From the sequence record NZ_CP085281.1: a stretch of 64,000 bases of DNA; one strand, 5' to 3'. Each line of letters starts with the position of its first letter. Positions within the stretch are counted from its first letter, which is position 1. Position numbers and translations under genes: made by a program. The DNA is from a plasmid. Positions 8,888 through 63,565 of the stretch are shown here, one piece after another. The notes beneath the pieces were generated by a model, which saw only the letters and a program-made list of their open reading frames with translations, was not told the origin of the DNA and ran no database searches.

Positions 8888-8898
8888 ATCATCCCGCG

Positions 8899-12936: not shown

Positions 12937-12961
12937 ACCGCCGCCGACTACCGTGCGCTGC

Positions 12962-32474: not shown

Positions 32475-32599
32475 CCGAATTGCCATCCTTACTATGCACG
32501 CGCCGGTCGGCTGACATCGGTTAGCCTAGCTGGCGGTCGCCGGTGCGGGAAAGACGATGGCGGGTGACATCGCCGGAGGAGGCTGCGATGGGCGCGGCG

Positions 32600-47095: not shown

Positions 47096-47881
47096 TTAGG
47101 CATCGGCTATCAGCCTCATCCGGTATTCGTGGTCTGGATCGCATTCATTCTCGTGCCACCAGCAGTCGGTGATTCTCGTTGCGACTTCCGCGGTTTCGTA
47201 CCGGGATAGCGCCGCCCAGAGTCCATCACTCGTGTCGAGACTGCCGGAGCGGAACTGCAGCCCGTCACGCTGCCAGATCTGCATCGTCACCGCGCCCTCA
47301 CCGGCCGGTTGCAGGCGCGTTAGCCAGCGGCCACAGAGTGGCAGTTCGGTGCCTTGTACCGCGGTCACATCCGGGGTGCTGAGCGCGTCGGCCGCAGACG
47401 CGTCTATGCGGATCTTGAACAGCGAGCTCGCCGGAAGTTCGTTGACCTCGCAGGGGCATGCCCAGCACCCGTAGGGCTGGCCGTCGAAGTCGACGCCCCC
47501 GCCGTGGCTGAGCAGGTCATGTTCACAGCCTGGGTTGGGGCACAGCTCGTCGTCGTGGGCGTCGAGGCCATCCATATGCTTGGTCATGTCGTGCGGTAGG
47601 CCGCCCGTCGTGAATCCTGGACACAGGCATCCGTCGTCGGCGGCGGCGATGTGAGCTGCTCCCGGCCTTTCGCCGTCAAATGCTCCGGGCAATGTCAACG
47701 GCGCCGGCCCGGCGGCAATACAGCCCGCACCATCGACGGTGCTGAAGTGGGCATGTACGGAGTGCTTGCAGATCCAGCACCGCACCGTCTGCGCAGAGAC
47801 TCGGCCTTCTCCCATCTCAGAACACAGCCGGCCATAAAGCGCTCGTGCTTGTTCGGCGGTGCGAGGAACCTCATCCGTCAT
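47096..47881 (-). CDS. Cys/His-rich hypothetical protein
   Basis: ATG at 47881 with GAAGGGGA RBS. Several CxxC / HxH / CPC motifs (CWIC, CLCPGF, CPNPGCEH, CWACPC). The track ORF extends to 47932. Confidence 0.5.
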   Translation of the reverse strand: MTDEVPRTAEQARALYGRLCSEMGEGRVSAQTVRCWICKHSVHAHFSTVDGAGCIAAGPAPLTLPGAFDGERPGAAHIAAADDGCLCPGFTTGGLPHDMTKHMDGLDAHDDELCPNPGCEHDLLSHGGGVDFDGQPYGCWACPCEVNELPASSLFKIRIDASAADALSTPDVTAVQGTELPLCGRWLTRLQPAGEGAVTMQIWQRDGLQFRSGSLDTSDGLWAALSRYETAEVATRITDCWWHENECDPDHEYRMRLIADA

Positions 47882-47994
47882 GGTTGTCCCCTTCGCTGCG
47901 CGCGCTCGACGCTCGACCGGCTGTGTCGGCACCGGCCGGACGGTCCAACATCAGGCCTATGCCCTCGACGTCGTCGTCAGCTCGGACGTCACGC

Positions 47995-48327
47995 TCAGAG
48001 TGCTGTTTGAGGGTCCGTTTGCCATGCCGGGCCTCTCGTCAGCTCCTTGCATGAGATGTGTCGTGGCAGCACAGGATGTCCGCGAAATGCGTTGTAATCG
48101 GCGCGATCGAAGGCATCCGTATAGCTGTGCCCCGATGCGTAGAAGACTCCCAGGAACACTGCGTCGTCCTCTGCATCAGGCGATTGGTGTTCGTACGCCT
48201 CGCACCTGACGGTGACCATGGGATCTGCCCCCGCCGACGCGGCAAGCGCCAATGCTGCCGATAGCGCAGAAATCCCCACCACGCATCGCTGCGACAACAC
48301 CCGTCGGCGCACATGCTGTGTAGCCAT
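47995..48327 (-). CDS. small secreted protein
   Basis: Signal peptide 'VVGISALSAALALAASAGA'. Two Cys residues. Confidence 0.45.
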   Translation of the reverse strand: MATQHVRRRVLSQRCVVGISALSAALALAASAGADPMVTVRCEAYEHQSPDAEDDAVFLGVFYASGHSYTDAFDRADYNAFRGHPVLPRHISCKELTRGPAWQTDPQTAL

Positions 48328-48374
48328 CGTCAGACTCCGTTTCTCGTTACCCATTCCGGGACATCTCGATCGTG

Positions 48375-49148
48375 TCACGAGCTGGCTTCGACCGGCTTGT
48401 ACCTGATGTCGGCCAGAGGCAGGTCATCAGGATGCAGCAGCTCGCCGCGGTGCGCCTCGAACTCCCAACGCAGCGCGTCATAGGACTGCTGTCCGAAATG
48501 CCGCCCGATGTGTGGGCGCAAAGCCAACGCCACATACGGGTCCGTGGTGCCCATGCACTCCAGCCGGTCGAGTAACCAGCCGAATCCCCCAACACGCTGC
48601 AGGAGCTCGCAGGCCTTCTCAATCACGCCGTTGCGCCGGTCATCGAACAACTCCGGGCCATACTTGCCGAACAGGTTCGGGTCATACGTCTCGGAGCCGT
48701 ACAGACAGGCCACCTCGCGCAACCGCGAATACTCACGACGGGCTGGATCGATCAACCAATCCCGCAACAGACGATCCTCCACGGCGACATAGCGGCTCAT
48801 ATCTCCGTCCAATTCCCCGGTCTCGACCACTCGAATCGCACGGAACCCCGTCGGATTTCCCTGCCATACCTCCCATATATCGATATCGCACCACGGATAC
48901 TCATCAGGGTTGTCGTACAGTTCGAAAGGCTCCGGATCTGGCTCCCTCAACTTTTCGTTGGGCACCCAAACAACTCCCGGCGGGGCCGTCGCGATTTTCA
49001 GCAGTGCCTCCCGATACTTCTGCCCATCTGGGTCAATCACGAGCCACCTCGACGCATCCTGCCCCGACCCATCGACCACCAAATCCGAATGCGGACAACC
49101 CAATGCCTCCGCTACCGCTGCACCACCACCATGTTCCTGCATCGCCAT
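48375..49148 (-). CDS. hypothetical protein (~257 aa)
   Basis: ATG at 49148 with AAGGACG RBS. The track ORF extends to 49394. Confidence 0.5.
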   Translation of the reverse strand: MAMQEHGGGAAVAEALGCPHSDLVVDGSGQDASRWLVIDPDGQKYREALLKIATAPPGVVWVPNEKLREPDPEPFELYDNPDEYPWCDIDIWEVWQGNPTGFRAIRVVETGELDGDMSRYVAVEDRLLRDWLIDPARREYSRLREVACLYGSETYDPNLFGKYGPELFDDRRNGVIEKACELLQRVGGFGWLLDRLECMGTTDPYVALALRPHIGRHFGQQSYDALRWEFEAHRGELLHPDDLPLADIRYKPVEASS

Positions 49149-49179
49149 ATCGTCCTTTGGTTTTCGTACGGTCTGTGGA

Positions 49180-49722
49180 CTACGCGGCCATGTGGCCGAT
49201 GATCGTGGTGTCGTCTGCGCCGAACTGCCGGGCGCGAGCCTGGGCGAGGCGGAGCTTGCGCTGGACTGCCGGCAAGTCGGCGGGTGAGAGCCCGGGGTCG
49301 GTGAGCCGGCCGCTGAACACCGCGACATCGCGAAGGGCATGGTTGACGCTGTCACCGTGGATGTACGGACCGCAGCTCGAAATGCCGTTCTCACCCTCGT
49401 AGATACGAGCCCAGTCCCGCAGCTCGTCGACGTCCAGGCCGGAAGCTGCGTGGACTACGGCATCAACTGCTGTCTGGACGTGGCGCAGCTCGTCGATCGC
49501 TGGCTGACGAGCCGCGACCGCCCACACCGGGGTCGGGGTGGCGACGAGTCGCTTCGCCTCACGGGTCGAGACCCCCAACGCATCTGCGATCGTCTTGTCA
49601 TCGGCACCGTCGATCCGCAGTTTCTTCGCCATCGCTGTCGCGAGAAACTCGCCGCGGCGCTCAGCCCAGCGGGCCGCGGCCCGGGCGGCGCGCATCGCCT
49701 CGGAGTAGCTGCTGTACTCCAA
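49180..49722 (-). CDS. hypothetical protein (180 aa)
   Basis: Clean ORF, protein-like. Confidence 0.45.
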   Translation of the reverse strand: MEYSSYSEAMRAARAAARWAERRGEFLATAMAKKLRIDGADDKTIADALGVSTREAKRLVATPTPVWAVAARQPAIDELRHVQTAVDAVVHAASGLDVDELRDWARIYEGENGISSCGPYIHGDSVNHALRDVAVFSGRLTDPGLSPADLPAVQRKLRLAQARARQFGADDTTIIGHMAA

Positions 49723-49744
49723 CTCGGTCTCCTCTGCCTCGTAC

Positions 49745-50038
49745 CTATTCCGGACTGTCTTGTTGCTGAGATCCTGGTTCGTCCTCTATGGACGAACCAG
49801 AGGTACCGCATTCGACGTGTGCAGCGATCGCAGCATTCAAGACGTCGATACGTGCCATGTGGTGCTTGAAGTCGGCACCGTTCTCCTGGAAGCGCATCGC
49901 TAGCTCCGAAGCAGCCGTCGCGTGATGAGCGATGAGAGTCAGGATCTCCGAGAACAGCAAGCCTGGTGCCTCGTCGTTCTGAGCAGTCATGTCAAATCCT
50001 CTGCTGCGCTTTACGTTTTGTGAAATACGGCTCGCCAA
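49745..50038 (-). CDS. hypothetical protein (97 aa)
   Basis: Small ORF in the operon. Confidence 0.35.
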   Translation of the reverse strand: MASRISQNVKRSRGFDMTAQNDEAPGLLFSEILTLIAHHATAASELAMRFQENGADFKHHMARIDVLNAAIAAHVECGTSGSSIEDEPGSQQQDSPE

Positions 50039-50056
50039 CTAGGGCGCGCAGTCGCT

Positions 50057-50437
50057 CTACTTCATCCGCCAGACGATGAGCATGACCCGGCGCCGGAGGA
50101 TGACATCAGCATCTCCTACCGATCGCGGATCGTGTTCGCCCATACCGAAGCGCATTGCCATCGTGGTCGTCTTCGAGTACGCGACTCTGACGAGCCGATA
50201 TGTGAGCCAGACGAATCCCACAAGGGCGCCTAGAGCCATCACGGCCAGAACACGGCCAGCGGCGTTATCTAGCTGCGCGGCAACGCCAACCAACCAGGTC
50301 GATAGGCCAATACCGGCCCACAACGTGACCATTCCGGCACATAGTGCAGCGACAACGCCCAGCGCCAGCGCCCACGCGGCAACGTAGGGCAGTCGCGGAC
50401 TCCGCAGCCACCAGTCACGAGAACCGGAATCGCTCAT
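50057..50437 (-). CDS. hypothetical membrane protein (126 aa)
   Basis: Two or three predicted TM helices. Confidence 0.4.
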   Translation of the reverse strand: MSDSGSRDWWLRSPRLPYVAAWALALGVVAALCAGMVTLWAGIGLSTWLVGVAAQLDNAAGRVLAVMALGALVGFVWLTYRLVRVAYSKTTTMAMRFGMGEHDPRSVGDADVILRRRVMLIVWRMK

Positions 50438-50475
50438 ACACCCTCACCCAAGCCTTTCGCTATGCCGATACTCAG

Positions 50476-51333
50476 TCATCCGCGTGCCTGGCCACCCCAC
50501 CACCAGAGGGCGTTACCGACATGGTGTGGTCCGGGGTGCCCGTCAAAAAGCATGCACGGGGAGGTCGGCGATAAGTCGTCCCTGGACAGCGGGAGCTCCA
50601 ATGGGCAGTCGGGTTCTCGCCGGAACTCACGCAACGAATGAGTGTCGTCCCACACCAGCCATGTTTCATGACCGTCCCCAACGTTCTGGACCGGGTCATA
50701 GTGGGGTCCAGCGTGGCCAGCGGCAAGATTGCACCGCCCCCACAGTCGCGCGGGGTACTCGCCGCCTGGTGTGCTGTCGATAGAGCGCCGTTCCTGAGCG
50801 GTAATCTCCACTGTCTCTGCACACGTCTTCACCGCTGGCCACTCAGAGTCTGGATCATCTGGCTGCCTGCTGCGCGCACGCTCACGGTGCCCAATCGAAT
50901 CCTCTCCCAGGACTTCCAAGGTCTGTTCGACCGGGTCGAGGACTCGGCCCAGTAACTCGTGAGGTGTCGCACGCTGATCTTCAGGCAAGTCATTGATGTA
51001 GACCTGGAAATCGCCCAGCGCCCGCACCGCGCGAATGAGATGCGAACTGACGTGGTTCAGGGTCAGCACCCGCCCCAACTCGCTGGCACCCTCGTTGACA
51101 AAGACTCCTCGACCATGTTGAGCACTGACGAGTCCCTCCGACCGCAACTGCTGAATCGCCTGCCTCACAGTCATGCGCGCGACACCGAAATGCTTCATCA
51201 GCTCGACCTCAGACGGAATCCGCTCACCAGGCTGACACTCGCCCCCACCAATCGCGTCTCGCAACTGGTCGGCGATCTGCCGGTACGGGGGACGATCACT
51301 TATACGGTCGATAGCACCGAGAGCGATCCTCAT
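50476..51333 (-). CDS. GntR-family transcriptional regulator
   Basis: N-terminal GntR wHTH 'PPYRQIADQLRDAI..G....GERIPSEVELMKHFGVARMTVRQAIQQLRSEGLV'. Confidence 0.65.
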   Translation of the reverse strand: MRIALGAIDRISDRPPYRQIADQLRDAIGGGECQPGERIPSEVELMKHFGVARMTVRQAIQQLRSEGLVSAQHGRGVFVNEGASELGRVLTLNHVSSHLIRAVRALGDFQVYINDLPEDQRATPHELLGRVLDPVEQTLEVLGEDSIGHRERARSRQPDDPDSEWPAVKTCAETVEITAQERRSIDSTPGGEYPARLWGRCNLAAGHAGPHYDPVQNVGDGHETWLVWDDTHSLREFRREPDCPLELPLSRDDLSPTSPCMLFDGHPGPHHVGNALWWWGGQARG

Positions 51334-51408
51334 CCGAACTCCTTTGCACTAGTGGCTAATTCGGCACCGATCGGGGATCGCCACCGACTTCGCCGCGCAG
51401 CATCGTGG

Positions 51409-51615
51409 TCATTTCTGAATCACTCTGCCCGGAACGTAGATTCCGCGCCCGGTCATCGACTCCACGGCTTCCCCCACCGCGTCATCGATCGAGTCGTACG
51501 CGAGCGTGTTTCCTAAGCCAATCGTTTCGAATTCCCCATCGTGTATCTGCCGTTCGAGCTGATAGGAAATCCGGTACACCTCTTTCGGCGACTCCTGCTG
51601 CGCCATCACAACCAC
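51409..51615 (-). CDS. hypothetical small protein (68 aa)
   Basis: Small ORF upstream of the GntR gene. Confidence 0.3.
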   Translation of the reverse strand: MVVMAQQESPKEVYRISYQLERQIHDGEFETIGLGNTLAYDSIDDAVGEAVESMTGRGIYVPGRVIQK

Positions 51616-51710
51616 CCTTCTCTCTTGGTTCTGTGCGCAGAGTAATCCGGTGCACCGACAACCTCCCGCGCTCTCGACATCAGGAATCGTATCACTAATC
51701 GCTACGTTAT

Positions 51711-52223
51711 GTGTCAGTTTCCGCTACGCTACGCAGTATGGGTAGGTACGCCACATCCACCGACGTCGCACCCGACCGGTCGCGCAGCGAGATTGAACGC
51801 ACGCTGCAGCGTTACGGAGCGCGCCAGTTCGCCTATGGGTGGGATGAGAACCGTGCGATGCTCGCGTTCGTCGCCAACGGTCGCCAGGTCCGGTTCGTGC
51901 TGCCACTGCCGGATCGCGACGCGCCGGAGTTCACCAAGACGCCAACGGGCAGGGACCGCTCGGCGAGCGCGGCCAACGAGGCATATGAGCAGGCGGTGCG
52001 GCAGCGTTGGCGTGCACTCGCGTTGGTGATCAAAGCCAAGCTCGAGGCTGTCGACACGGGGATTGTGGACTTCACCAGCGAGTTCCTTGCCCACCTAGTG
52101 TTGCCCGGCGGTGGCGGCGAGACGGTCGGCGAGGCCGTGGTGCCGCGTATCGACGAGGCGTACCGAACAGGCGAACCTCCGGATCTGTTGCCGGCGTTCG
52201 CGCCGCGGGCGCTTCCTCAATGA
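51711..52223 (+). CDS. hypothetical protein (170 aa)
   Basis: Clean ORF. Stop overlaps the start of the next gene. Confidence 0.45.
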   Translation: MSVSATLRSMGRYATSTDVAPDRSRSEIERTLQRYGARQFAYGWDENRAMLAFVANGRQVRFVLPLPDRDAPEFTKTPTGRDRSASAANEAYEQAVRQRWRALALVIKAKLEAVDTGIVDFTSEFLAHLVLPGGGGETVGEAVVPRIDEAYRTGEPPDLLPAFAPRALPQ

Positions 52224-52534
52224 GCCCACGGCGTCGGGGCACGGTTCCCGAGCCGCAGCGGACGCAGCTTCACGATGCTCACCGCACCGCCCAGACAGCC
52301 AGTGCCGAGCTGCGCCGAGCGGTCTGGGCTGCCTATCAGGCCGGTGCGTCGATTCGCGAGATCGCAGGTGAGCTTGGCATGTCCACCAACACGATCCAGC
52401 AGTGGATGAAGCTGGCGCGGGCGCACGACGCAGAATCGGCCGCGACGAGGATGGGCGTCGGCCCCGATGACCAGCATGGAGCTTCAGGCGTTCACGGTGC
52501 CGGATCTGACAAATGCTCGCCGCGCGACTCGTGA
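52220..52534 (+). CDS. small HTH DNA-binding protein (~105 aa)
   Basis: 'ASIREIAGELGMSTNTIQQWMK' helix-turn-helix. Confidence 0.45.
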   Translation: MSPRRRGTVPEPQRTQLHDAHRTAQTASAELRRAVWAAYQAGASIREIAGELGMSTNTIQQWMKLARAHDAESAATRMGVGPDDQHGASGVHGAGSDKCSPRDS

Positions 52535-52579
52535 TCGACGCTGAGAACGGTCCGCTGAGGTCCACACCGGTCTGGGCGC

Positions 52580-53200
52580 TCAGCGGATGTCTGGGGCCGT
52601 CCCATGGGTGTTCGTTGCCGGGTCGAGCAGTTGTGTTTCGAGGTCGGCGATGCGTCGGTCGAGGAAGCGGTTGTTGGAGCGGGCAGCTGCGAGTCGTTCG
52701 GTGAGGGTGGCGTGGTCCTCGGTGAGCTGTCGTATCCGTTGGCGCAGTGCGGTGTTCTCACTGACGAGGTGTTGCTGGCTCTCTGGTGACCAGGTTTGTT
52801 CGAGATCGCGAATCTGGCCCATCAGCTCGCCGATGCGTTGCCGCTGCCGCTGAATTTCAGCGTTGGTGGTAATGAGCGCTGCTTCGGCGTTGAGCGCGCG
52901 TTCGCGCCATCCCGAATCTGTGGTCCCCGTCGTCGCTTCGGGCGTACCACCGCCCGGGGCGGCGGTTTCGTTGGTGCGGTCGCCGGTGGCGGCGCGGACC
53001 AGTGCACGGGCCCGCGGATTTTCGTAGAGAAAGGTTCGGGACACATTGGCCTGATCAGCGATCGCCCGAGCGGTGATTGGTAGCTTGCGGCGGCGCATTC
53101 GCCGGATTGTGTCGTCGACGCGGGCGACAAGCTGGTCGGCGCGCGCCCGTCTGGCCTTGACTGCCGCGTCGGTACGGGCAGATCCGGTGGTGGCGGTCAC
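52580..53200 (-). CDS. small HTH plus coiled-coil protein (TnpC-like, module 2)
   Basis: 'ITARAIADQANVSRTFLYEN' HTH. Coiled coil 'ENTALRQRIRQLTEDHATLTERL'. GTGA overlap with B'. Homolog of 33051..33461. Confidence 0.6.
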   Translation of the reverse strand: MTATTGSARTDAAVKARRARADQLVARVDDTIRRMRRRKLPITARAIADQANVSRTFLYENPRARALVRAATGDRTNETAAPGGGTPEATTGTTDSGWRERALNAEAALITTNAEIQRQRQRIGELMGQIRDLEQTWSPESQQHLVSENTALRQRIRQLTEDHATLTERLAAARSNNRFLDRRIADLETQLLDPATNTHGTAPDIR

Positions 53201-55806
53201 GCGAGCTCCTCGGTCGGCACGGTGTCGTCGGCGTCATCGAGCTGGGCGAGTTCCTGTGCGCGGAACGCGGTGGCCCACATGCGGTTGAGATAGTCCTGGG
53301 GTCGGCGCATGTCGAGGGCGAGGGCTTCGTCGAGCAGTCCGACTGCGGAGAGCGCTTTTTCGAGTCCGTCGATGGCTTTGTTGGTCGGTTCGAACACCTG
53401 GTGCAGGTAGTCGGCGGTGGCGTCATCAGGTGCTCGTTCGGCGATCGAGCGCCACTGTTCGCGTTTGCGGCGCCAGTACAGCAGGTCTGCTCCGGACAGG
53501 ACGAACTTGTCGCAGTTGTGGCAGTCGAGGTTCCACGGGCACGCGTGGCCGTGGACGACCGGTTGGAAGGTGCAGAAGCCGCCTTCGGCGGGTGTGGAGC
53601 GTCGCGATAGGTCTAGAGCAAGAGCTTGGGCGTCAGTGCGGGTGAGGGTGGTGGTGCCGGCGGAGAGCACCTCACCAGGATGGGGCGCGGCGGGACCGGC
53701 GACCCAGACGTGCTGCAAGATGTCCTCGATGTCGCTGAGCGAGGCCTTCGCGTACCGCTCAGCCATGCGGGGTGAGATCTGGCCGAGGTAGCGCTGGATG
53801 TGGTGCAGCGGCGCGCCGTGGCGCAACAGTTTGGTGGCCAATGTGTGCCGGGCCTGGTGGGTGACGTAGTTGCCACCGAGATCAAGGCTGTCGACCCAGA
53901 GCCGAAACGACCGGGAGTACCACGGGTAGCCCATCGAGGCGGTGCCGTCGGAGTTGCGGAAGTTCGACGGGAACAGTGCCATCTTGTGCCGGTCGCGCGG
54001 TGCGGGTTCGTGACCGTGGTGTTGGACGTACTTCGCGATGGATTTGCGGCGGCGTGTTTCGATCAGCTCGTACACCGATTCGGGAATGCGGATAGCGGTG
54101 TCGTAGTTGCCCACCTTGGTTTGGTCGTGCCAGAGCAGCGGCAGGTCGTTGTGGCGGCCAGTGCAATCGAGGCGCAGTTTGAGCACCTCGTTGGCACGCC
54201 GGCCGGTGGCGATGATGATCGTCCACGCGTCGCGGATGCCGACGTCGTTGGGATCGTAGGCAGCAAGCGCCTGTAGGTTCTGCTCGTCGGCGAGCTGCTG
54301 AGCGACATGGTCGGGGAACGGCCGACGCGCTGGCGACGGCTGGGTGCCGCCGTAGGGTGCGGCGACGATAAATGATCGTGGGATGGCCAGGGTATCCGCG
54401 GCGCCGGTGTCGAGCGCCCACCGCAGAATACGGCGCACACTGTTGAGCGCTTGGCTGCTAGTCACGGTGGTGACGGTGCTGGGTTGTCCGTCGCCGCGGT
54501 GAATGCCCAGCGAGGGCAGACCGTGCTTGACCCGGTGGCGCTGGTCGGCGACGAACCGCTGCATGTCGACTTCGCCCAGCTGAGTCGGGTCGTGACCTCC
54601 ACCGACGGCGTCGGTTTCGAGGAAGGCGCTGAGTTCGACGACGCCGCGGCGCAGCCCATCGATCGGGCCTGCGGTAGCGGGCGGGCTGGGCGCTTGCAAA
54701 AGATCGGCAAGATAGTCCCACAACAGGTTTCGTAGCCAGGGCTGGCTGGCGCCGCGGAGATTGAAGTGGCTACCGCGGTTGGTGTAGCGGATGCCGAAGT
54801 GCTCGGTCTCCAGGAAGCCGGCCTCACGCGTGTCGGCGCGGGTGAAGTACACCAGCCGCAGCTCACCAAGCATCTCGCGGGCGACATGCTTGCGGGGGCT
54901 TCTCTTGCCAGCGTCGAGAACGTCGAGGTCCAGGTCGACCAGCGAAACAAGGTCATGCTCGCGACAAGCATTGGCCAGTGCCTGCACGTATTGCAGATCC
55001 CAGCGGGCCCGGCGCCCTTCGGTGTGCCGATACATACCCCACCGGATCTCGGCCGCGACCAAGGGCCGGAGGCCTAGCAGGTTCACCTGACCGCGCACAG
55101 GATGCGGTTCGACGGTGGCGCACCAGTGGTCGAACGCCGCGCGGTCCTCGCAGCGCAGCGGTGCGCGCTTTCCCTTGGCTTCGTAGCCCATCAGCCACCG
55201 GCCCGGCAGATGCGCGCCGCCGGGCCGGCCGACACGTTTGTAGATGGCGCCGTGCCACCGGCACAAACCGAGCGGGGACTGCGCCAGCTCGGGGCAGCAG
55301 ACGACTCGGCATTCCCCATAGCCGGGAAGCGCGTGCTGCGTGGGCAACCAGTCATCGAGGGTCAGTTCGGGATGGCGCTGCAACGCAAACCGGAACCGTT
55401 CGGAGTGCTGCAGGCACAGCCCGTTCTCCGATCGACGCGCGGGGCGTTCGGGGCAGATCCGACACATCCGTTCATCGGGTGGCAACGCGACCTTGATTGG
55501 TGTTGCGGCAGCGACGAATTCGGGGCGGTTGCCGCCCCGGTCGCGATGGCGCAGCCATTGCTTGTTGTGTTGGTTGCAGAGTTCGTTGCCGTTGGCGCGG
55601 GCAGCTTCGCACTCGGTGACTACGCATCGCCAGCCGAACACCGGATGCAGTGGCGGGAAGCGCAAGACGTCATCCCGAAACACGGGATCGACGCTGGGGC
55701 CCGACAACAGTGTCGTCAGCAGTTCGTGGCGATCGCGGACCTGCCGGCCGGGCTGGTCGATGCGCAGCGGCCACATGCTGTCACCCCATTGGGCGGGCTT
55801 GCTCAT
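53197..55806 (-). CDS. large tyrosine recombinase with N-terminal triple zinc-finger region (TnpB-like, module 2, ~869 aa)
   Basis: Three CxxC...CxxH units N-terminally. Catalytic motifs 'ATGRRANEVLKLRL', 'HQARHTLATKLLRHG' and 'HHIQRYLGQ'. C-terminal 'CPWNLDCHNC'. ATG at 55806 overlaps the A' stop (ATGA). Confidence 0.75.
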   Translation of the reverse strand: MSKPAQWGDSMWPLRIDQPGRQVRDRHELLTTLLSGPSVDPVFRDDVLRFPPLHPVFGWRCVVTECEAARANGNELCNQHNKQWLRHRDRGGNRPEFVAAATPIKVALPPDERMCRICPERPARRSENGLCLQHSERFRFALQRHPELTLDDWLPTQHALPGYGECRVVCCPELAQSPLGLCRWHGAIYKRVGRPGGAHLPGRWLMGYEAKGKRAPLRCEDRAAFDHWCATVEPHPVRGQVNLLGLRPLVAAEIRWGMYRHTEGRRARWDLQYVQALANACREHDLVSLVDLDLDVLDAGKRSPRKHVAREMLGELRLVYFTRADTREAGFLETEHFGIRYTNRGSHFNLRGASQPWLRNLLWDYLADLLQAPSPPATAGPIDGLRRGVVELSAFLETDAVGGGHDPTQLGEVDMQRFVADQRHRVKHGLPSLGIHRGDGQPSTVTTVTSSQALNSVRRILRWALDTGAADTLAIPRSFIVAAPYGGTQPSPARRPFPDHVAQQLADEQNLQALAAYDPNDVGIRDAWTIIIATGRRANEVLKLRLDCTGRHNDLPLLWHDQTKVGNYDTAIRIPESVYELIETRRRKSIAKYVQHHGHEPAPRDRHKMALFPSNFRNSDGTASMGYPWYSRSFRLWVDSLDLGGNYVTHQARHTLATKLLRHGAPLHHIQRYLGQISPRMAERYAKASLSDIEDILQHVWVAGPAAPHPGEVLSAGTTTLTRTDAQALALDLSRRSTPAEGGFCTFQPVVHGHACPWNLDCHNCDKFVLSGADLLYWRRKREQWRSIAERAPDDATADYLHQVFEPTNKAIDGLEKALSAVGLLDEALALDMRRPQDYLNRMWATAFRAQELAQLDDADDTVPTEELA

Positions 55807-56978
55807 GTCAGCCCCCACGTCTTGCGCAACGCCGCGTCGAAAACCGGATCGTGCAGATCGGCGTGTGCGTACACCTCGTCGACTGTGGTCGTCGAGGACC
55901 AGCCTCCGGCGTCGCGGGTGACCACCAGGTTGCCACCGGACGCATCAAGGACGGCGGTGGCGAAAGAGTGCCGGAACATGTGCGGCCGGATCCGGCCCAG
56001 ACCCGCGCGGGCACCGGCGCGGCGCAGGACCGCCCGGGCGGCGTCGGGCGCCCATGCAGCGCCGATGTCGTCGCCGTCGAGCTGGACGAGCAGCATGCCG
56101 TGCTCATCGACGACCGCACGGGCGCGTTCACCGGTGACGTAGTCGAAGTAGGTGTGGATCATCGCAGGGCTGACCCGTTTAATCAGGCCGCCGGTGACCG
56201 TGCCGTCCTCGATCGTCCATGGCAGCTTCGTCTTCGCCCGTGCGCCGTTCGGATTGGCCGGGCGGTCGCAAACGTGTACGTGTGGCGATCGGCAGCCGCC
56301 GCACTCCGCACCGTCGCGCAAGTGCAGGTCCATCAGGTGCAGTCCGCACAACTCGCCGATACGGAACCCTCCGTCACATAGCCAGGCCACTACAAGCCGG
56401 TCCCGCGCGGTCCGCACCACCTGTTCCAATTTCGGGCGCGCCCCGTCGGGCAGCATCTTGGGATGGCGCCGACGAATCGACTTCGGCGCCAAGGGATTCG
56501 CGCGCACGCTGGTGGTCACGTGGCCGAGCATCGATCGTTCCCGGTCCGCTCGCGTCGGTAACCGCGTTTGGTCGAGTTCACGGCCCAGCTGCGGGCAGGA
56601 TCCGAGCACTGCGTGGTGCAGGTAGTAGCCCTTGAGGCACGCTGCAGTTGTCTGCAATGCACTGTTGCCGTAGGGACGCTCCCGCCAAGCGAGGCCGTGC
56701 GGGCCGGAGATCTTTGCGCCGACAGCCCCCATGTACCGGCGCAGGTCGCGCACGCTGATCGATTCCAGGTTCAAGCCTTCACGTGCGCACCAGCGCAGAT
56801 GATCGACCAGGTGGTACGCGTACGTGCGTTGCGTGGTGGAGCCGTCGAACTGTCGCAAAAACCCATCCGCGGGCTCGTGCACAGTGCCGTCCGGCCACAC
56901 GATCGTGAACGATCGCCACCCACCCCCGCGGTGCAAGGGCTGAACGCGTAGATCATCGACAATCGCGCGACGAGCCAT
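55803..56978 (-). CDS. tyrosine recombinase (TnpA-like, module 2)
   Basis: 'RIGELCGLHLMDL', 'HMFRHSFATAVL' and 'VDEVYAHAD' catalytic motifs. 'RTYAYHLVDHLRWC' core-binding region. Start is uncertain (ATGs at 56978, 57020 and 57056; the track ORF extends to 57398). Confidence 0.7.
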   Translation of the reverse strand: MARRAIVDDLRVQPLHRGGGWRSFTIVWPDGTVHEPADGFLRQFDGSTTQRTYAYHLVDHLRWCAREGLNLESISVRDLRRYMGAVGAKISGPHGLAWRERPYGNSALQTTAACLKGYYLHHAVLGSCPQLGRELDQTRLPTRADRERSMLGHVTTSVRANPLAPKSIRRRHPKMLPDGARPKLEQVVRTARDRLVVAWLCDGGFRIGELCGLHLMDLHLRDGAECGGCRSPHVHVCDRPANPNGARAKTKLPWTIEDGTVTGGLIKRVSPAMIHTYFDYVTGERARAVVDEHGMLLVQLDGDDIGAAWAPDAARAVLRRAGARAGLGRIRPHMFRHSFATAVLDASGGNLVVTRDAGGWSSTTTVDEVYAHADLHDPVFDAALRKTWGLT

Positions 56979-57182
56979 CTCCGTCCTCCCCGGGTTAGCA
57001 ACCGTGTCGACGGGCAGCATTGCACCGGGCACCGACAACACGCGAAAAGCGCACATAGCTCCGATCGCGAATGCGAGCGTCGTTTGATCGCGAAATTCAG
57101 CGTCCGTCGTCAACTCGAATTGGCTCCAGTTGGGCGGTGCGAAGTGGCCCCACCTGGAGCCGGGTAGGGGGATGCTGGAGGG

Positions 57183-57545
57183 GTGGACGACGACGCGCTG
57201 CGTGAGGCGTTGATCGCGAAAGCGGCAAGCGATCTCGCGCAGTTGTTGACGTGGACCCGCGCCGAGCGGGCGCTGCGCGGTGATGACGATAAGCACGCCG
57301 CCTGGCTCGATGAGTTGCTCATCGGCCTGGAGCCGTTGGCCGAAGGTGTCGATGATGTGCAGACATCCATGGTGATGCGCCGGGTAGTGCAGCAGCATGG
57401 CGGGGAAGGCCCGTGGTCGATCGAGGATATGGCCGCGATGACCGGCCGCGATGCAAAGTCAATCGAGCGGGTGGTGGCTGGCCTGACCGAAGCCGGCGTG
57501 GCCTGCCCCGTCACGCCACCAGACGGTGATGATGAGTCGTCATGA
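57183..57545 (+). CDS. hypothetical protein (120 aa)
   Basis: ORF divergent from A', overlapping its long N-terminal extension. Uncertain. Confidence 0.3.
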   Translation: MDDDALREALIAKAASDLAQLLTWTRAERALRGDDDKHAAWLDELLIGLEPLAEGVDDVQTSMVMRRVVQQHGGEGPWSIEDMAAMTGRDAKSIERVVAGLTEAGVACPVTPPDGDDESS

Positions 57546-58087
57546 TGGCCGGAGAGCACCACTCGCGGACGAAACTGCGGAATTTATACCAGATTTCATA
57601 CCAGCCAGCGGCGCCACGCTCCGACGGTCCAGCCCGGAAGGCACGTCATTGACCAGGCAGTGTTCCGGTTTCTGCACAAAATGCTGAGGGGTCGGCACCA
57701 CATCTGCTCGACTCCCGGGCCATTCCATTCCGGCGTCGCTCCCTCCCCTAAGCTCAGGCGCGCAGTGCGCTCGGGGCAGACGCGCCACCCACGAGCTCGT
57801 CGAGTGCTTGTGAGACGCGCGGGCAAAGGCCGCGGTGGTGGTGTGCTTGCCGGCGGATATACATGACGATGTCTGCTTCGTCGCCAGCGAGCGCCAGGCG
57901 GGCGAGGTGGACTAATACCTCCCCGTCAACTGATTCGCTCTTCCACTCGCCCGCCGCACTACCTGTTGACATGCCCTTTTCCGTTCATTCCGAGTGGACT
58001 ACTTCGCCGCCAGATTCATGCGAGTCGCCCAGTCCTGTGTCTCATCGTCCTGCCGCTGCTGCGGACACGCCGATGTCGAGCACGGTC

Positions 58088-58264
58088 CTATGTCAGGTTG
58101 CGGTCGAGTGCGGCCCGGATCAGTCGTGCATGGTCGCCGTCGCCCCAGGGCTGGATCAACTCCCGAATCTCACGCACCGCACGCTCTAGTTTCTGCTCGC
58201 GAGTGAGCGGCACCGCCGCACCCCGTTGACCGCCGAAATACTTGTTCATATCGTAAAACTCCAT
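58088..58264 (-). CDS. small protein (58 aa) with strong RBS
   Basis: 'GGAAGGAG' lies 7 nt upstream of the ATG at 58264. The track ORF extends further upstream in the same frame. Confidence 0.5.
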   Translation of the reverse strand: MEFYDMNKYFGGQRGAAVPLTREQKLERAVREIRELIQPWGDGDHARLIRAALDRNLT

Positions 58265-58433
58265 TTCACAACTCCTTCCATCGAGTGCTGGTGGCTTCCA
58301 ACAGAGCGGGATCGAGTCCAGTCGACGGCTCCCAAGGTCGCACGTGGCGAACACGGTCGGTTAAGGAGTCCGCCGGACGGTTGAGAAGGACCGCGACGAA
58401 CGTGGCGAACACCGTTCAGCGCGGTCGGTAAAG

Positions 58434-58822
58434 TCGATGATCAGGTGCAGGGGTTCGCGGTTGCGCCAGTACAACGTCTCCAGGAAGTCTGCGGCGAAGG
58501 ATCTACGTTCGGCCTTCCGCATCAGCGATAAGTCGAGTACGACCGGGAATCGCTGTTGGGCAACCAGTTCGGCGACGACTGCACCTTGGTTGGGACGCAG
58601 GGCGATGTCGGCGTGGTCGCCACCGAGGATGATGACGGGGAATCCCGCTTCGCGTCCGTCGGCGGAGGAACGCAGTCCGTGCCAGACGCCGGTGGGGTCG
58701 ATGACGCAGATTAGGCAGCCGGCGTTCATCAGTTCTTCGGCCAGTACCGAGGCGGTGTGGGTCTTACCCCGGCCTTTCTTGCCCAGGATGGCGAAGGTGG
58801 CGGTCACACTGTCCACGGGCAT
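58434..58822 (-). pseudogene. 5' portion of the disrupted HerA/DUF87-like ATPase gene (Walker A)
   Basis: 'ILGKKGRGKTHTASVLAEELMNAGCLICVIDPTGVW', 'ILGGDHADIALRPNQ' and 'VVLDLS...FAADFLETLY' are DUF87/HerA-like. Ends at '...EPLHLIID', after which the reading frame enters the inverted repeat and terminates. Confidence 0.55.
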
Positions 58823-59088
58823 GGTGAAGTCGTCGGCCAGCGCAATTCGCGGCGCTAGCTCGTTCCCGCGTCCGGTGTCTGTCATATCTGTGCCTGTATC
58901 GGTTGACCTGCTCTGATCGGGCTTGCCGTCTTCGAGTATGCCCGGCATTGGGGTGCCCGAGCGGGTCCGCCGCGGCATGAGTTGTCTCCATCTGGCCGTC
59001 GGCGCCCCGCCGGCGCGGGCGCATCCGTCATGCCTACGGCGCGCGACCGCTGAGCAGGCGTGACGGCATGTCCCGCCAGCCACTTGGG

Positions 59089-59337
59089 TCAGGGGCGCAC
59101 CCGGGCGCGCCGTGACGTCGCGTCGTCGATCGGGACCAGGATTTCGGCGTCGGGGTCGTGCTCAACGGCAGTGACGGCCTGGATCTCGCGTTCCAAGCCC
59201 TGGAAGCCGTCGTCGTCGAGTTCGGCGAGCCGGTTCTCCAGGTCCAGCTCCTCGACGTCGGCGCCGGCGGGGACCTGAACGCGGGCTTTGTGTTGGGAGA
59301 TCTCGGTCCATTCGATGAGCACGGTGCGCATGGTCAC
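59089..59337 (-). CDS. hypothetical acidic small protein
   Basis: GTG at 59337 or ATG at 59331. Acidic. Confidence 0.4.
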   Translation of the reverse strand: MTMRTVLIEWTEISQHKARVQVPAGADVEELDLENRLAELDDDGFQGLEREIQAVTAVEHDPDAEILVPIDDATSRRARVRP

Positions 59338-59442
59338 GGCGTTCCCTTCCAGGGTCGGTGACCGGGCCTACAGGCCCGGCCGTGTGGTGTCGCCCATTCG
59401 CGGGCACATCTCAATTCTACTGTCCAGCACCGACACTCGACA

Positions 59443-59931
59443 CTAGCCGCCGTGCCTTCCGAGGCGTCCCGCGGTGCGCAGCAGTGATGCCGCGACCGCG
59501 CGTTGGTAACCGATCCCCGGTGCGGCCTCGAAGGCATCCAGCACGGCGATGTCGGCTAGGCCTGCCTCGTTGAGCGTGCCGACGGCGTCGGTCAGCACCC
59601 GCAGATAGGCTGCCGGCAGCATGGCGACGATCTCGTTCGGAGGGTCGGCGCGGAGCTGGTCGGCGACGTGCGTGGCGGTGATCGAGCCGGGCTGTCCCAT
59701 CCTGAGGTCGTAGGGCGCGACGACAGTCATGGGGTCGACGAGTCCGTGCAGCGCCGACAGGATCGCGACGTTGGCGCTCCCACCGCAGACGCGTGTCGTC
59801 TCGGTCGCTTCGCAGCGGGCTGCAGCCAACATCAGCGCGAAATGTGCGCTGCGGTAGAGCTTCTCGGCTGGGGCGCGATGGTTCAGTTTGGCGGCTCCGC
59901 AGGCCACCACGATCAGCACCTGGGCGCTCAC
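59443..59931 (-). CDS. hypothetical protein (~162 aa)
   Basis: GTG start overlapping the upstream stop (GTGA). 'LIVVACGAAK' N-terminus. Confidence 0.4.
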   Translation of the reverse strand: MSAQVLIVVACGAAKLNHRAPAEKLYRSAHFALMLAAARCEATETTRVCGGSANVAILSALHGLVDPMTVVAPYDLRMGQPGSITATHVADQLRADPPNEIVAMLPAAYLRVLTDAVGTLNEAGLADIAVLDAFEAAPGIGYQRAVAASLLRTAGRLGRHGG

Positions 59932-60230
59932 CGGAAGTCCTTGGAGGCAATGATGGCCGCGGTCAGCGCACGGCACCGCTCGGGGATCGCGACCACGGCG
60001 AGGTCCCCGCAGCGGATCTTGACTTTGCGGCCAGACTTGTCGAGGACCACCCGCACCCAGCCTCCAGGGACGCCGACGACCATGCCGCTGCGTTCCCCGG
60101 CACTGTGCCACTGCGTACCTGGACGGAGGGCCACACGGTCAGCCAGTTGGAATTGGCCAAGCGACGTCGCCCAAGTCAGCTCGCCATCGGGGTCTTGGAC
60201 GGGGGTGTAGAAGCGGTCGTCGAGCGGCAT
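59928..60230 (-). CDS. hypothetical protein (100 aa)
   Basis: Clean ORF, coupled to the downstream gene. Confidence 0.4.
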   Translation of the reverse strand: MPLDDRFYTPVQDPDGELTWATSLGQFQLADRVALRPGTQWHSAGERSGMVVGVPGGWVRVVLDKSGRKVKIRCGDLAVVAIPERCRALTAAIIASKDFR

Positions 60231-60335
60231 GGTGGGCTCCCCTGGTTCGGGTGTGGTGACCGGGCCCGCGGGCCTGGCCGGCTGGTGTGGTCGACGCGCA
60301 TCGCACTGTCGTTGCGACGTGGCCGCTGCCGCTGG

Positions 60336-60662
60336 TTAGGCGGACAGTGAGGACAGCAGGGCGTAGCTGATGGCGTGGTATTGCCGTTCGGTCATGGGCG
60401 CAGGGGTGCCGCTGGCTGGGTCGACGCCCACGACGATCGCGTCGCCGTAGATCATCGGCACGGTGTGAGGCCCGAGGTCACTCACGCTGGGCAGCAGGGT
60501 CATGGCGGCCATGTTGGGTTCGGCATCGGGGTCGGCCGCGGTGCGGTACCAGAGTTCGATGTTGTGCCGTAGCGCAACGGCGGCGGTCTGCGGACGGCTG
60601 GTCGTGGGGTCGATGTCGACGGTCTGCCACCATCCGCTGGCGGTGATGCGAAGTGCGCGCAT
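60336..60662 (-). CDS. hypothetical protein (108 aa)
   Basis: AGGAGGAG RBS immediately upstream of the ATG at 60662. Confidence 0.55.
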   Translation of the reverse strand: MRALRITASGWWQTVDIDPTTSRPQTAAVALRHNIELWYRTAADPDAEPNMAAMTLLPSVSDLGPHTVPMIYGDAIVVGVDPASGTPAPMTERQYHAISYALLSSLSA

Positions 60663-60686
60663 GCTGTCTTCTCCTCCTGAATTGAG

Positions 60687-61034
60687 CGCGATTCTCGGGG
60701 ACGTGTCGTCGCCGCTGCTCAGCGGCGCAGTGGGGTCGCTCCTTCGGTGAGGTCCCTTCGGGGTGTGCCCCCTGCTGCCCGGGTCCGCAATCGCTTGGTG
60801 GCCCGACCGGGGCGGCGAATCGTCATCGTCGCTCGTCTCGGAGCCGGCGCACGTATCGGGCGACGGGGACGTGTCGTCGCCGCTGCTCAGCGGCGCAGTG
60901 GGGTCGCTCCTTCGGTGAGGTCCCTTCGGGGTGTGCCCCCTGCTGCCCGGGTCCGCAATCGCTTGGTGGCCCGACCGGGGCGGCGAATCGTCATCGTCGC
61001 TCGTCTCGGAGCCGGCGCACGTATCGGGCGATGT
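60687..61034 (+). repeat. 178-bp direct tandem duplication (~1.95 copies)
   Basis: Copy 1 is 60687-60864 and copy 2 is 60865-~61034, near-identical. Each copy contains the perfect palindrome 'gccgctgctcagcggc'. Copy 2 includes the last codons of the 60991..61240 gene. Confidence 0.85.
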
Positions 61035-61240
61035 CGTCGACGCGGTCGGCGATCGCGTCGAGATTCCCTTCGATGACGAGGCCGTCGTTCTCTTCGCCGA
61101 GGAACAGTGCCCAGGGCTGAGTTACGGCTTCCGCCGAGGCAGCGTCGTGCACCGGGGTGCCCAACGCCTCTGGGGCGTGTTCGCGGTCCACCAACAGATA
61201 GTTGAGGTGATCGGCGGGGACCAGCCGTGTGGTGGTCACC
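60991..61240 (-). CDS. hypothetical protein (83 aa)
   Basis: GTG at 61240 with GGAGG RBS. GTGA overlap with the upstream gene. Confidence 0.5.
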
Positions 61241-61457
61241 GTGGGACCTCCTGGTCCGCTGCCGCCGCGTCGGTGTCGTCGAGCCACCACTGGCCTTCCT
61301 CTTCGGCGTACTGGCGGTCGGCGCAGTTGCCGCAGGCTCCGTTCCACCCTTCGCCGTCGTCGAGGGAGGCAGTGCAGCCTTCCTCGTAGGGGTCAGAACA
61401 GATGTCGTTGGCATCCAGGTCGTCGACGGCGTTCTCGGTAGCCGGTGTGGTTGTCAT
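61236..61457 (-). CDS. small acidic Cys-containing protein (73 aa)
   Basis: Asp/Glu-rich, with CxxxxC...CxxC. Confidence 0.45.
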   Translation of the reverse strand: MTTTPATENAVDDLDANDICSDPYEEGCTASLDDGEGWNGACGNCADRQYAEEEGQWWLDDTDAAAADQEVPR

Positions 61458-61585
61458 CAGAGCATCCCGGCGAGGTGGTCGGAGTAGATGTCGGCAGCCT
61501 GTGCACGCAAGGCGCGCAGCACGGTGCGGGCATCGTGCGCAGTCAGCATTTCGAGGGAAACGTCCTCGCCGTCAATGCAATACAT
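61457..61585 (-). CDS. putative very small protein (42 aa)
   Basis: ATG at 61585 with GAAGGGTGA RBS. The track ORF extends further upstream. Confidence 0.3.
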   Translation of the reverse strand: MYCIDGEDVSLEMLTAHDARTVLRALRAQAADIYSDHLAGML

Positions 61586-61900
61586 GCTTGATGTCACCCT
61601 TCGGGGGCTCGGTGACCGGGCCCTCGGGCCTGGCCGGTTGGTGTGGCGTCCTCTGTGTGAGTCGCTGCGTTCAGTGTATCGCGGGGATCCGACAGATCCG
61701 GGTGCCGTGATGCGCTCTCGGTCGATTGGCGTGGTCGCGGGGAATGCGGGCGGTTTGGCGTCCATACCAAAGAAGTACCGTCGCCGGGGCCTGTTTCCGT
61801 CGTGGCCGACGGGTCAGACTTCGGCTAGGCCGGTTTGGGTCATCGCACGGGGTGGGCCCGCCTCGGCGCTGCGGGTGAGCACCGGCAGGGTCTGGCGGCC

Positions 61901-62161
61901 TCATGGCCACGGGTCATCCTCCGCCCACCGTTCACCAGCTGCCAGGGGATCGAAGTCGGCGGGTGCCATTTCGGGGTAGCGAGCGCGGATGGCGGCCATC
62001 TTCGGGGCGGTGCGCTCGTAATAGACCTCCCAGTGGTGGTCGCAGCGGCTGTAGTACTCGCCGCTACCTGACAGCGCGGGCCGGGGGAACACCTCACCGC
62101 GGCAGTCCTGGGGACCATCGAGGCAGTCGTCGGTGTCGTGGGTCGTGCTTGCGTCGGGCAT
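61901..62161 (-). CDS. hypothetical small protein (~86 aa)
   Basis: ATG at 62161 with GGAAGGA RBS. Confidence 0.45.
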   Translation of the reverse strand: MPDASTTHDTDDCLDGPQDCRGEVFPRPALSGSGEYYSRCDHHWEVYYERTAPKMAAIRARYPEMAPADFDPLAAGERWAEDDPWP

Positions 62162-62300
62162 TGCGTGATCCTTCCATCGGTGACCTGCCCCTCGGGGACG
62201 GCCGGTTATGTTGTGCGACTGCGCTTCCGCTTCTATAGACCAACGGTAGCAACGGCCTCCGACACCGCCACTCCGGAAGCGAACCTGTCTGTTGTCTCTG

Positions 62301-62936
62301 TCAGGAGCGTCGGTATGTGGACTCGAGTTCGAGGGGCTCGCCGGTTTGGGCCGCGGTGCGGATCTTGGCCAGGGCCGTGGTGGTGATGCCGGTATCCCGG
62401 TCTGCGGGGTCGACGTCGAGGCAGCCCAGGATGGTGTACAGCTCGTCGTCGGATAGGTCGCCGGCCCGGTGCAAGGTGATCGCACCTATGAGGGCTTCGA
62501 GCATGACGCGCTCTTCGGGCGCGTACTTCGAGAATTCGGCGCCGGCCCACGCCATCGGTTCGTCATTGGCGCGGCTGAGCCGCTTGAGTGCGCCGTCCAC
62601 ATCGCCGCGGAAGCGGCGCACGAAGACCGCATCGTCGTCGCTGAGGTCGGGGTTGGCCAGTTCGGCTTCGGCGTCGGTGAGCCACCGTTCGAGCATGGCG
62701 TAGACACCTTTGCGGTCGGCGAACGCGATTGCCCGCCAGAAGGTCCGGAACGCGCCCATGTAGCGCTTGTCCTTGGGGTGGCGGGGCACCAAGTGGGACC
62801 GAATCACGATGTCGCCGTTCTTGGATTTGGCGACCTTGCCTACCCAGGATGGGGTGAGTCGACCCTCGGGGAACTCCACCGGTGTTGCTGGCGGGAACCA
62901 GGGCTGCTCCGGCGAGTACACGCGGTTATCGGTCAT
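62301..62936 (-). CDS. hypothetical protein (~211 aa)
   Basis: ATG at 62936 preceded by AAAGGAG. Confidence 0.55.
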   Translation of the reverse strand: MTDNRVYSPEQPWFPPATPVEFPEGRLTPSWVGKVAKSKNGDIVIRSHLVPRHPKDKRYMGAFRTFWRAIAFADRKGVYAMLERWLTDAEAELANPDLSDDDAVFVRRFRGDVDGALKRLSRANDEPMAWAGAEFSKYAPEERVMLEALIGAITLHRAGDLSDDELYTILGCLDVDPADRDTGITTTALAKIRTAAQTGEPLELESTYRRS

Positions 62937-63063
62937 GACAGGGGCTCCTTTGGTATGGGCTGGGTGTGCTGCCGGCGGCAGTGCTGCCGTGCAACCACGC
63001 TGGGTGCAGGGCCGACGGCATGTCCCCCGGCGCTGCATAGATGGTGGGCGGCGGGTGTGGTGG

Positions 63064-63540: not shown

Positions 63541-63565
63541 TGTACTGAGTGGTTTCTCCGGGCCG

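Follow-up and report, generated by a model that had tools for sequence, protein, structure and literature searches.

The 64,000-nucleotide stretch of plasmid record NZ_CP085281.1 analysed here (the window), from a Mycobacterium host, contains three adjacent minus-strand genes at 52580-56978 that encode two tyrosine recombinases and a small helix-turn-helix protein. These genes raise the question of what kind of element they belong to and where that element begins and ends. An earlier note on this DNA, in which the genes were named A', B' and D', had described them as a Tn554-like trio and as a second, divergent copy of a gene block found elsewhere in the window (module 1). They are called tnpA', tnpB' and tnpC' below. 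We put at about 85% the probability that positions 46549-58432 hold a complete transposon of the Tn554 family that moved recently and inserts in a site- and orientation-specific manner, belonging to the actinobacterial Tn554-related class and having the trio as its recombination module. This reading is carried by features that can be seen directly: ends defined to the base, two identical copies, a target reading frame that is restored on removal, a footprint rule at the junctions, ends and a target common to a whole family, and homology to Tn558.

Extent and ends of the element

The transposon occupies 46549-58432 on the minus strand (11,884 bp), as delimited by identity to a second plasmid and by end motifs conserved in its family. 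Plasmid pS2b of M. avium subsp. hominissuis (L001, 14550-26433) carries the same segment, identical at 11,884 of 11,884 positions. Outside this segment the window and pS2b are unrelated, except for weak similarity at the coding level, which is ~65% just beyond both boundaries. The earlier note had taken the presence of two modules in one replicon as a sign of recent activity. Recent activity is supported, by the identical copy in another replicon and not by the two modules. Read along the minus strand, the element runs from its left end through ~1.4 kb with small open reading frames (ORFs) to tnpA', tnpB' and tnpC', followed by 6 kb of cargo and the right end.

On this strand the element begins with TTTACCGACCG and finishes with CGGTCGGAAAA, which gives 11-bp inverted repeats matching at 10 of 11 positions. 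The left, tnpA-proximal repeat TTTACCGACCG (58422-58432, minus strand) contains the first bases in common with pS2b. The right, tnpC-distal repeat is inverted relative to the left end and reads TTTTCCGACCG on the plus strand (46549-46559). The left repeat recurs in direct orientation 68 bp further in (58342-58364, minus strand), as TTAACCGACCG, after which comes GTGTTCGCCACGT. A second GTGTTCGCCACGT is present at 58400-58412, and each copy of the left repeat has one. The subterminal repeats may be bound by the element's own proteins. Generic repeat finding over the element returned only high-GC noise and missed the 11-bp ends.

The disrupted target gene and its junction hexamers

The element splits a gene for a HerA-like (DUF87) ATPase. 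The 5' part of this gene (58433-58885, minus strand) extends from the Walker A motif GKKGRGKT to ...LHLIID, and the 3' part (45247-46542, minus strand) starts with EADEFAPQR.... When joined, the two halves encode a 582-amino-acid protein with DUF87 and HerA_C domains, the first 280 residues of which are 87.5% identical to an uninterrupted HerA-like protein of M. avium p1-JPH1. In both the window and pS2b, the insertion lies between the D/E and E codons of the Walker B motif; in the window it falls between the D and E codons (LHLIID|EADEF), with the element in the same orientation as the split gene. The two target genes are only ~46% identical at the protein level. Removal of the element together with 6 bp restores the reading frame of the target.

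The 6 bp in question differ between the two junctions. In the window, the left junction has the hexamer ATCGAC (58433-58438, minus strand), which encodes the I-D codons of Walker B and is native to the target; homologues have ATCGAT, ATCGAC or ATTGAC at this position. The right junction has GTTGAG (46543-46548, minus strand), a foreign footprint that does not occur in the empty sites. The window therefore reads ...CTGATC ATCGAC [element] GTTGAG GAGGCCGAC, and pS2b reads ...CTCCTC GTTGAG [element] ATCGAC GAAGCCGAC. Eight homologues that have no insertion (L002-L004 and L090-L094) continue across the site with one hexamer each; examples are ...CTGATC ATCGAT GAAGCC in L002, ...TTGATC ATCGAC GAGGCT in L003 and ...GTCGTC ATTGAC GAATCG in L004. 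Five uninterrupted orthologues of the pS2b type encode LHVV[IV]E|EADVL, with the hexamers ATCGAG, GTCGAG, ATCGAA and GTCGAA. Because these five encode [IV]-E at the site, GTTGAG is taken to be native in pS2b.

In each copy, then, the hexamer next to the tnpA-proximal end is native and the one next to the tnpC-distal end is foreign. The foreign hexamers are reciprocal: GTTGAG of the window is the native hexamer of pS2b, and ATCGAC of pS2b is the native hexamer of the window type. Neither copy shows a target-site duplication. An exact-protein look-up of A' gave only three short read-assembly contigs, one of which (L087) has the left end next to a third HerA-like flank, ...GTGGTG ATCGAC|TTTACCGACCG. 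In three independent HerA-like genes, those of the window, pS2b and L087, the element has entered at one and the same codon boundary and always in one orientation. The simplest history suggested by the hexamers would be a move from an ATCGAC-type site into pS2b and from there into the window's replicon.

The HerA-like target gene adjoins an FtsK/SpoIIIE gene in related plasmids (L004, 1-2539; L092), and in one record it bears the label of a conjugative DNA transfer family protein of the type IV secretory system. Given this neighbourhood, the insertion may disable a plasmid transfer function.

Relatives in the Actinomycetota and target preference

More than 270 B' homologues of ~870 amino acids are present in the protein collection, all with generic labels. 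When one genome per species was scanned, 394 relatives came up, every one in Actinomycetota, and 80 loci were kept for analysis. In all 80, an A' homologue (~65% identity) lies directly upstream of the B' homologue; the D homologue is also present in 77. Most of these loci show the end pattern TTTACCGACCG ... CGGTCGGTAAA, in which TTTACCGACCG precedes tnpA by ~123 bp. Many of the loci, not all of them, repeat CCGACCG 68 bp further inward from the left motif, and the inverted right end, with the consensus CGGTCGG(T/A)AAA, was found at about half.

Elements with both ends range from 4.59 to 9.8 kb, and many are 4.6-4.7-kb units that contain the trio only. The window copy, at 11.9 kb, is the largest seen; its tnpC' is followed by 6 kb of cargo and its tnpA' is preceded by 1.36 kb of additional DNA. 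Many relatives form stand-alone contigs of 4.6-4.8 kb (L007, L008, L019, L052 and others) that start and stop at the element termini, which suggests multi-copy, insertion sequence (IS)-like, trio-only elements in genomes of Pseudonocardia, Streptomyces and Streptosporangiaceae. In one Streptomyces sp. SM11 contig (L010), two family elements (1828-6345 and 8705-13927) are ~82% identical to each other and ~2.4 kb apart, with starts ~6.9 kb apart.

A target consensus was derived from 43 non-redundant sites. On the upstream side, A is found at -2 in every site and G at -3 in 42; T recurs at -5 (40/43), -8 (40/43) and -11 (38/43). Downstream, G is found at +1 in 30 sites and A at +2 in 38. In codon terms, the target consists of three hydrophobic codons, GAS (Asp or Glu), the insertion point and GA. 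When the element and its 6-bp footprint are removed, the flanks fuse into long in-frame ORFs that are co-oriented with tnpABC. Many targets have a right half (A.C.ACCG) with partial resemblance to the left-end repeat (ACCGACCG), and the same holds for the window half-site GCCGAC.

The insertions are largely at Walker B motifs of TniB/AAA_22 ATPases, for which the Pfam match of the reconstructed protein spans the junction. Other reconstructed targets matched an SNF2 helicase (at motif II), DUF5655 proteins (VVE|YKRG), a malic enzyme and a DnaE-like PHP domain. Searches with the HerA-like halves by tblastn found no such target in the 80 related loci, which makes the HerA target specific to this mycobacterial lineage. 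The gene upstream of one TniB-type target (L072) has below-threshold Pfam matches to the Mu-transposase C-terminal domain and HTH_32, and the one in L009 has none; this hints weakly that the TniB-type target is nested inside another transposon. An orthologous gene that contains DUF5655 has been hit at one and the same position (...DENGxPV[IV]VE|YKRG...) in twelve genomes of Streptomyces and its relatives (L041, L047, L048, L055, L060, L065, L067, L068, L071, L076, L079 and L081). The motif at this position is not a Walker B motif and looks like a nuclease E-x-K motif.

A tentative reading of these targets, which we hold to be possible and rather less than an even chance, is that the family may recognise a DNA signature, (NTS)3-GAS|GA, that encodes a hydrophobic beta-strand followed by a catalytic Asp or Glu. 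The main case would be the Walker B motif hhhhD|E of P-loop ATPases, with helicase motif II, HAD motif I and the nuclease-like E|YK motif as further cases. Recognition might involve the triple CCCH domain of TnpB described below, which is specific to this lineage. If the reading is right, one element family could be site-specific and still able to hit many unrelated genes, and it would preferentially knock out the ATPases of rival mobile elements, such as transposon TniB and plasmid HerA-like proteins.

The recombination proteins

The earlier note's three ORFs, given as ~390 amino acids, ~869 amino acids and a helix-turn-helix plus coiled-coil protein, hold up as genes for products of 391, 869 and 206 amino acids. 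RefSeq annotates these three genes on pS2b as well. tnpA' (56978-55803, minus strand) has GGAGG upstream of its ATG and encodes a tyrosine recombinase of ordinary size; tnpB' (55806-53197, minus strand) encodes a large one; and tnpC' (53200-52580, minus strand) encodes a DUF6262 protein with a helix-turn-helix and a coiled coil. Stop and start codons overlap through ATGA between A' and B' (4 bp) and through GTGA between B' and D'. A' and B' both pass the Pfam Phage_integrase cut-off and match Xer-like NCBIfam models weakly. D' scores 38.7 bits against Pfam DUF6262 (cut-off 29; E=1.3e-9).

B' is composed of three N-terminal CCCH units, a core-binding and catalytic domain and a C-terminal C4 motif. 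In an alignment of B' with 19 homologues (~55% identity), the catalytic residues R536, K564, H650, R653 and Y685 are invariant, as is the C4 motif C745/C756/C762/C765. The CCCH units are likewise invariant: C61-x4-C66...C77-x2-H80, C115-x2-C118...C131-x2-H134 and C166-x4-C171...C182-x2-H185. The three N-terminal CxxC...CxxH units of the earlier note are therefore real, with the correction that units 1 and 3 are of the Cx4C type. The N-terminal 235 residues occur in only 228 of 1.84 billion representative proteins, always as the N-terminus of ~860-amino-acid proteins or their fragments. Searches of Pfam and NCBIfam with the N-terminal 295 residues gave no match; a CxC6 hit at E=0.097 was dismissed.

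An AlphaFold2 (AF2) model of B' has a mean predicted local distance difference test (pLDDT) score of 73, with residues 20-490 mostly at 80-93, and each CCCH unit is modelled as a knuckle followed by a helix. Foldseek against the PDB matched the C-terminal ~360 residues to IntI4, XerA and XerH and found no match for the zinc modules. A sequence search of the PDB with B' returned integrase tails only, none of them significant (E>0.2). The zinc modules of TnpB' may bind or recognise DNA, and some division of labour between TnpA' and TnpB' may be presumed.

The trio was compared with the Tn554 family through the intact Tn558 (tnpA, tnpB, tnpC, orf, fexA) in radC of Enterococcus faecalis pW208 (L006). 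A tblastn search of plasmids with A' reaches Staphylococcus and Enterococcus records. A' matches Tn558 TnpA along its full length (E=8e-22), with 23% identity over 370 residues. B' matches Tn558 TnpB by BLASTP at E=8e-13, and its family profile matches at 95.7% probability by hhalign (E=9e-9, 244 columns), in an alignment that runs through the catalytic domain into a common C-terminal Cys motif, GxC..PV..G.CP....C.xC..F. The three CCCH units are not present in Tn558 TnpB. In the case of D', the match to Tn558 TnpC has E=3e-7 by BLASTP and 89% probability by family profile, and Tn558 TnpC is also a DUF6262 protein (60.4 bits, E=2e-16). Each of the three proteins is far closer to its TnpA, TnpB or TnpC counterpart than to anything in module 1, and the label Tn554-like given by the earlier note is borne out.

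A proposed route of movement

The ends and the footprints suggest how the element may move. A circular intermediate may arise, whether the element is cut out or copied out. On a circular or copied-out intermediate, the joined end repeats would flank a 6-bp spacer, CGGTCGGAAAA-N6-TTTACCGACCG, a layout that would correspond to the canonical core site of tyrosine recombinases. The spacer would be the hexamer beside the tnpA-side end at the donor site. This intermediate would then recombine with a target of the form nTS-nTS-nTSGAS|GA by a 6-bp staggered exchange. The target's own hexamer is then predicted to lie next to the tnpA-proximal end and that of the donor next to the tnpC-distal end, without any duplication.

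Several points weigh against the transposon reading as a whole. The native hexamers were deduced from orthologues of 66-88% identity and not from empty sites of the same replicons. Among the 46 family members with both ends, 19 have identical hexamers at both junctions. Such identity could reflect a move between two sites that have one core sequence in common, a genuine duplication of 6 bp or the repair of a heteroduplex, and the footprint rule is accordingly proven for the window and pS2b pair only, with support from a few pairs at orthologous targets. In one such pair (L009 and L013), the left hexamer is conserved and the right hexamer varies, consistent with the rule. AF2 confidence is low in parts of the catalytic domain of B' (residues 650-692 and 716-767), and a Gln in B' aligns with the second conserved His of Tn558 TnpB, a position at which other family members have Q or H. 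Excision, a circular form and a need for all three proteins are predictions for this element.

The best-surviving alternative, which we consider unlikely, is a classical integrative element like lambda, an integrative and mobilizable element (IME) or Tn916. Such an element would be fully excised and integrated as double-stranded DNA, D' would be an excisionase-like directionality factor, and the differing hexamers would be heteroduplex coupling sequences resolved by replication, with no copying of the left flank. A palindromic core site with a 6-bp spacer, as the joined ends would make, is compatible with this account, as are the 19 of 46 members with identical hexamers and the fact that D' is a small helix-turn-helix protein. 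Random resolution, however, predicts a foreign hexamer on either side, and in both copies it is on the tnpC-distal side; the conserved left and variable right hexamers of L009 and L013 point the same way, and D' belongs to the TnpC/DUF6262 family and to no known Xis family. The specific proposal that GTTGAG is a Tn916-like coupling sequence that could land on either side was rejected, since [I/V]-E is native in the five pS2b-type orthologues.

Comparison with module 1

Module 1 (33051-38882, minus strand) is a block of four genes which encode, in order, a recombinase, a 594-amino-acid protein without a family hit, a ~712-amino-acid recombinase-like protein and a small helix-turn-helix plus coiled-coil protein (A to D). 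This is the gene order of SE and GInt elements, which have been reported only from Gamma- and Betaproteobacteria (PMC10214605). A similar block, 81.7% identical, is found on the M. intracellulare/chimaera plasmids NZ_LT703506.1 and NZ_CP084587.1. Nearby, 475 bp of the window (32567-33041) match a transposase gene of M. chubuense plasmid NC_018023.1 at 92% identity.

According to the earlier note, the trio repeats the layout of module 1 without the middle gene, as a divergent second copy, and the D proteins and the catalytic cores of the two modules are homologous. On this reading it would be a multi-recombinase element of the RIT, GInt or SE type that has lost its middle gene. In both modules, minus-strand genes for tyrosine recombinases come one after another and a gene for a small helix-turn-helix and coiled-coil protein closes the run, and TnpC has been viewed as a structural counterpart of Srap/GinD (PMC10214605). 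D and D' give a short helix-turn-helix match by BLASTP (E=2e-4) with 40% gaps, and the D' family profile matches D with a probability of 14% over 27 helix-turn-helix columns, so that their homology is not confirmed at a useful level. A and A' have only one 10-residue box in common, RPHMxRHSFA. B' has no significant match to B or C of module 1, and its profile matches C with a probability of 4%. The note had itself named a lack of homology beyond the generic integrase fold as the result that would tell against its proposal, and this is essentially what was found: the modules have nothing specific in common, whereas profile probabilities for the trio against Tn558 are 89-96%. Module 1 has four genes, and the adjacency of A and B without a middle gene holds at 80 of 80 related loci, with D next in 77. 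Neither TTTACCGACCG ends at module 1 nor module-1 proteins inside the A', B' or D' clades were seen. That the trio is of one family with module 1 is thus very improbable.

Least probable of all is that the 11.9 kb are plasmid backbone swapped by homologous recombination, with the recombinases serving multimer resolution or plasmid maintenance: the large, mosaic mycobacterial plasmids that carry the element and the weak Xer-like matches of A' and B' would suit it, but it is effectively refuted by the junction analysis, since the boundaries are exact to the base, inside a gene and at the same codon in both replicons, the flanks at ~46% protein identity offer no homology to drive an exchange, and the ends match termini in chromosomes of many actinobacterial genera, often of 4.6-4.7-kb trio-only units.

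Cargo and surroundings

The cargo (46560-52579, minus strand) contains, according to the pS2b annotation, a gene for a GntR-family regulator and ~7 ORFs without a family match. The regulator (50476-51333, minus strand) gave the sole Pfam match among the cargo ORFs, and PADLOC found nothing significant there. Between the left-end repeats and tnpA' lies an extra segment of ~1.36 kb (56979-58341, minus strand) that is absent from typical family members, in which tnpA begins ~51 bp past the second left repeat. It has co-oriented ORFs of 58, 72 and 66 amino acids and an opposite-strand ORF of 120 amino acids; the small ORFs matched no Pfam or PADLOC family. Outside the element, the right flank of the window (59087-64000) is ~79% identical to a region of M. 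avium p1-JPH1 with AAA ATPase, VWA-like and IS607 tnpB genes.

Significance

The window and pS2b form a natural before-and-after pair, with two base-identical copies, several empty sites and reciprocal hexamers, and they display the rule by which a left-flank hexamer moves to the right junction outside Bacillota. The ends are defined through hundreds of actinobacterial relatives, which also yield a target consensus and let a palindromic att core be predicted. In large plasmids of the M. avium complex, the transposon knocks out a conserved gene for a HerA-like ATPase, and it carries its cargo from one such plasmid to another. Many annotations of the type "site-specific integrase" in Streptomyces and Mycobacterium genomes could be changed to transposon genes.

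Within the searchable literature, nothing was found on the ends, att core, targets or DUF6262 function of actinobacterial elements, nor any description of a target specificity for motif-coding DNA. A 2023 survey calls the mechanism of Tn554 transposition unresolved and lists only Staphylococcus and Enterococcus as hosts (PMC10214605). Within that literature, the defined ends, the footprint evidence, the CCCH domain and the preference for Walker-B-type targets appear to be new.

Comparison with known systems

RIT elements, like the trio, are mobile modules with several recombinases. The present element has two recombinases only, a DUF6262 protein as its third gene product and imperfect repeats of 11 bp, and is not of the RIT type. 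GInts are multi-recombinase mobile modules as well; they have four genes (ginABCD) with the small fourth protein last, and TnpC is regarded as the structural counterpart of Srap/GinD (PMC10214605). SEs have a fourth core gene, tfp, between two recombinases, which the trio lacks; sequence similarity to the trio is undetectable and the hosts belong to another phylum. Of the four core genes of SEs and GInts, the one for the catalytically inactive recombinase-fold protein (Tfp/GinC) has no counterpart between or beside A' and B', here or in any of the 80 related loci.

The Tn554 family of Staphylococcus and Enterococcus (Tn558, Tn559, Tn6674, Tn553) has the same co-oriented order tnpA-tnpB-tnpC at one end of the element, with a TnpA tyrosine recombinase of ~360-390 amino acids, a large TnpB and a DUF6262 TnpC, all three homologous to the trio. 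All three products are required for Tn554 transposition (Bastos and Murphy 1988, cited in PMC10214605). There is no target duplication, and the donor's left-flank hexamer is carried to the right junction, a 6-bp rule described for Tn554 and SE (PMC10214605). Insertion in this family is also site- and orientation-specific and lies within codons for a conserved catalytic motif: Tn558 is found in radC directly after the HNHPSGD codons of the JAMM/JAB motif (L006, 7780-7960 and 14380-14580).

The differences are in host, proteins, target and cargo. The window element is found in Actinomycetota; its TnpB' is ~230 amino acids longer than Tn558 TnpB and has the three CCCH units, its TnpC' has 206 amino acids against 121 in Tn558, and its cargo is not a set of antibiotic-resistance genes. 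The target is Walker-B-like hhhh[D/E]|[E/D] coding DNA in many genes and not the single att554 in radC. The att554/radC target and a Bacillota host are thus replaced here by Walker B of a HerA-like gene and a Mycobacterium host, and we treat the former as properties of a Tn554 subgroup and not of the family mechanism.

The closest class is that of the actinobacterial Tn554-related transposons, which were defined in silico by Van Houdt et al. in 2012 (PMC3414803), and the element accordingly belongs to a class already known. As far as the accessible text of that paper goes, members of this class are carried by both plasmids and chromosomes in Mycobacterium, Streptomyces and Rhodococcus, the occurrence of identical copies in separate replicons was read as a sign that they are mobile, and no ends, target sites or footprints are given. 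In the same text, the long recombinases have 611-828 amino acids and an N-terminal extension with no recognisable domain, whereas B' has 869 amino acids and CCCH units in its extension. The class is characterised there by two neighbouring tyrosine recombinases, one abnormally long and the other of typical size, and by a third gene related to TnpC, and it is this combination, in an actinobacterial host, that the window element presents.

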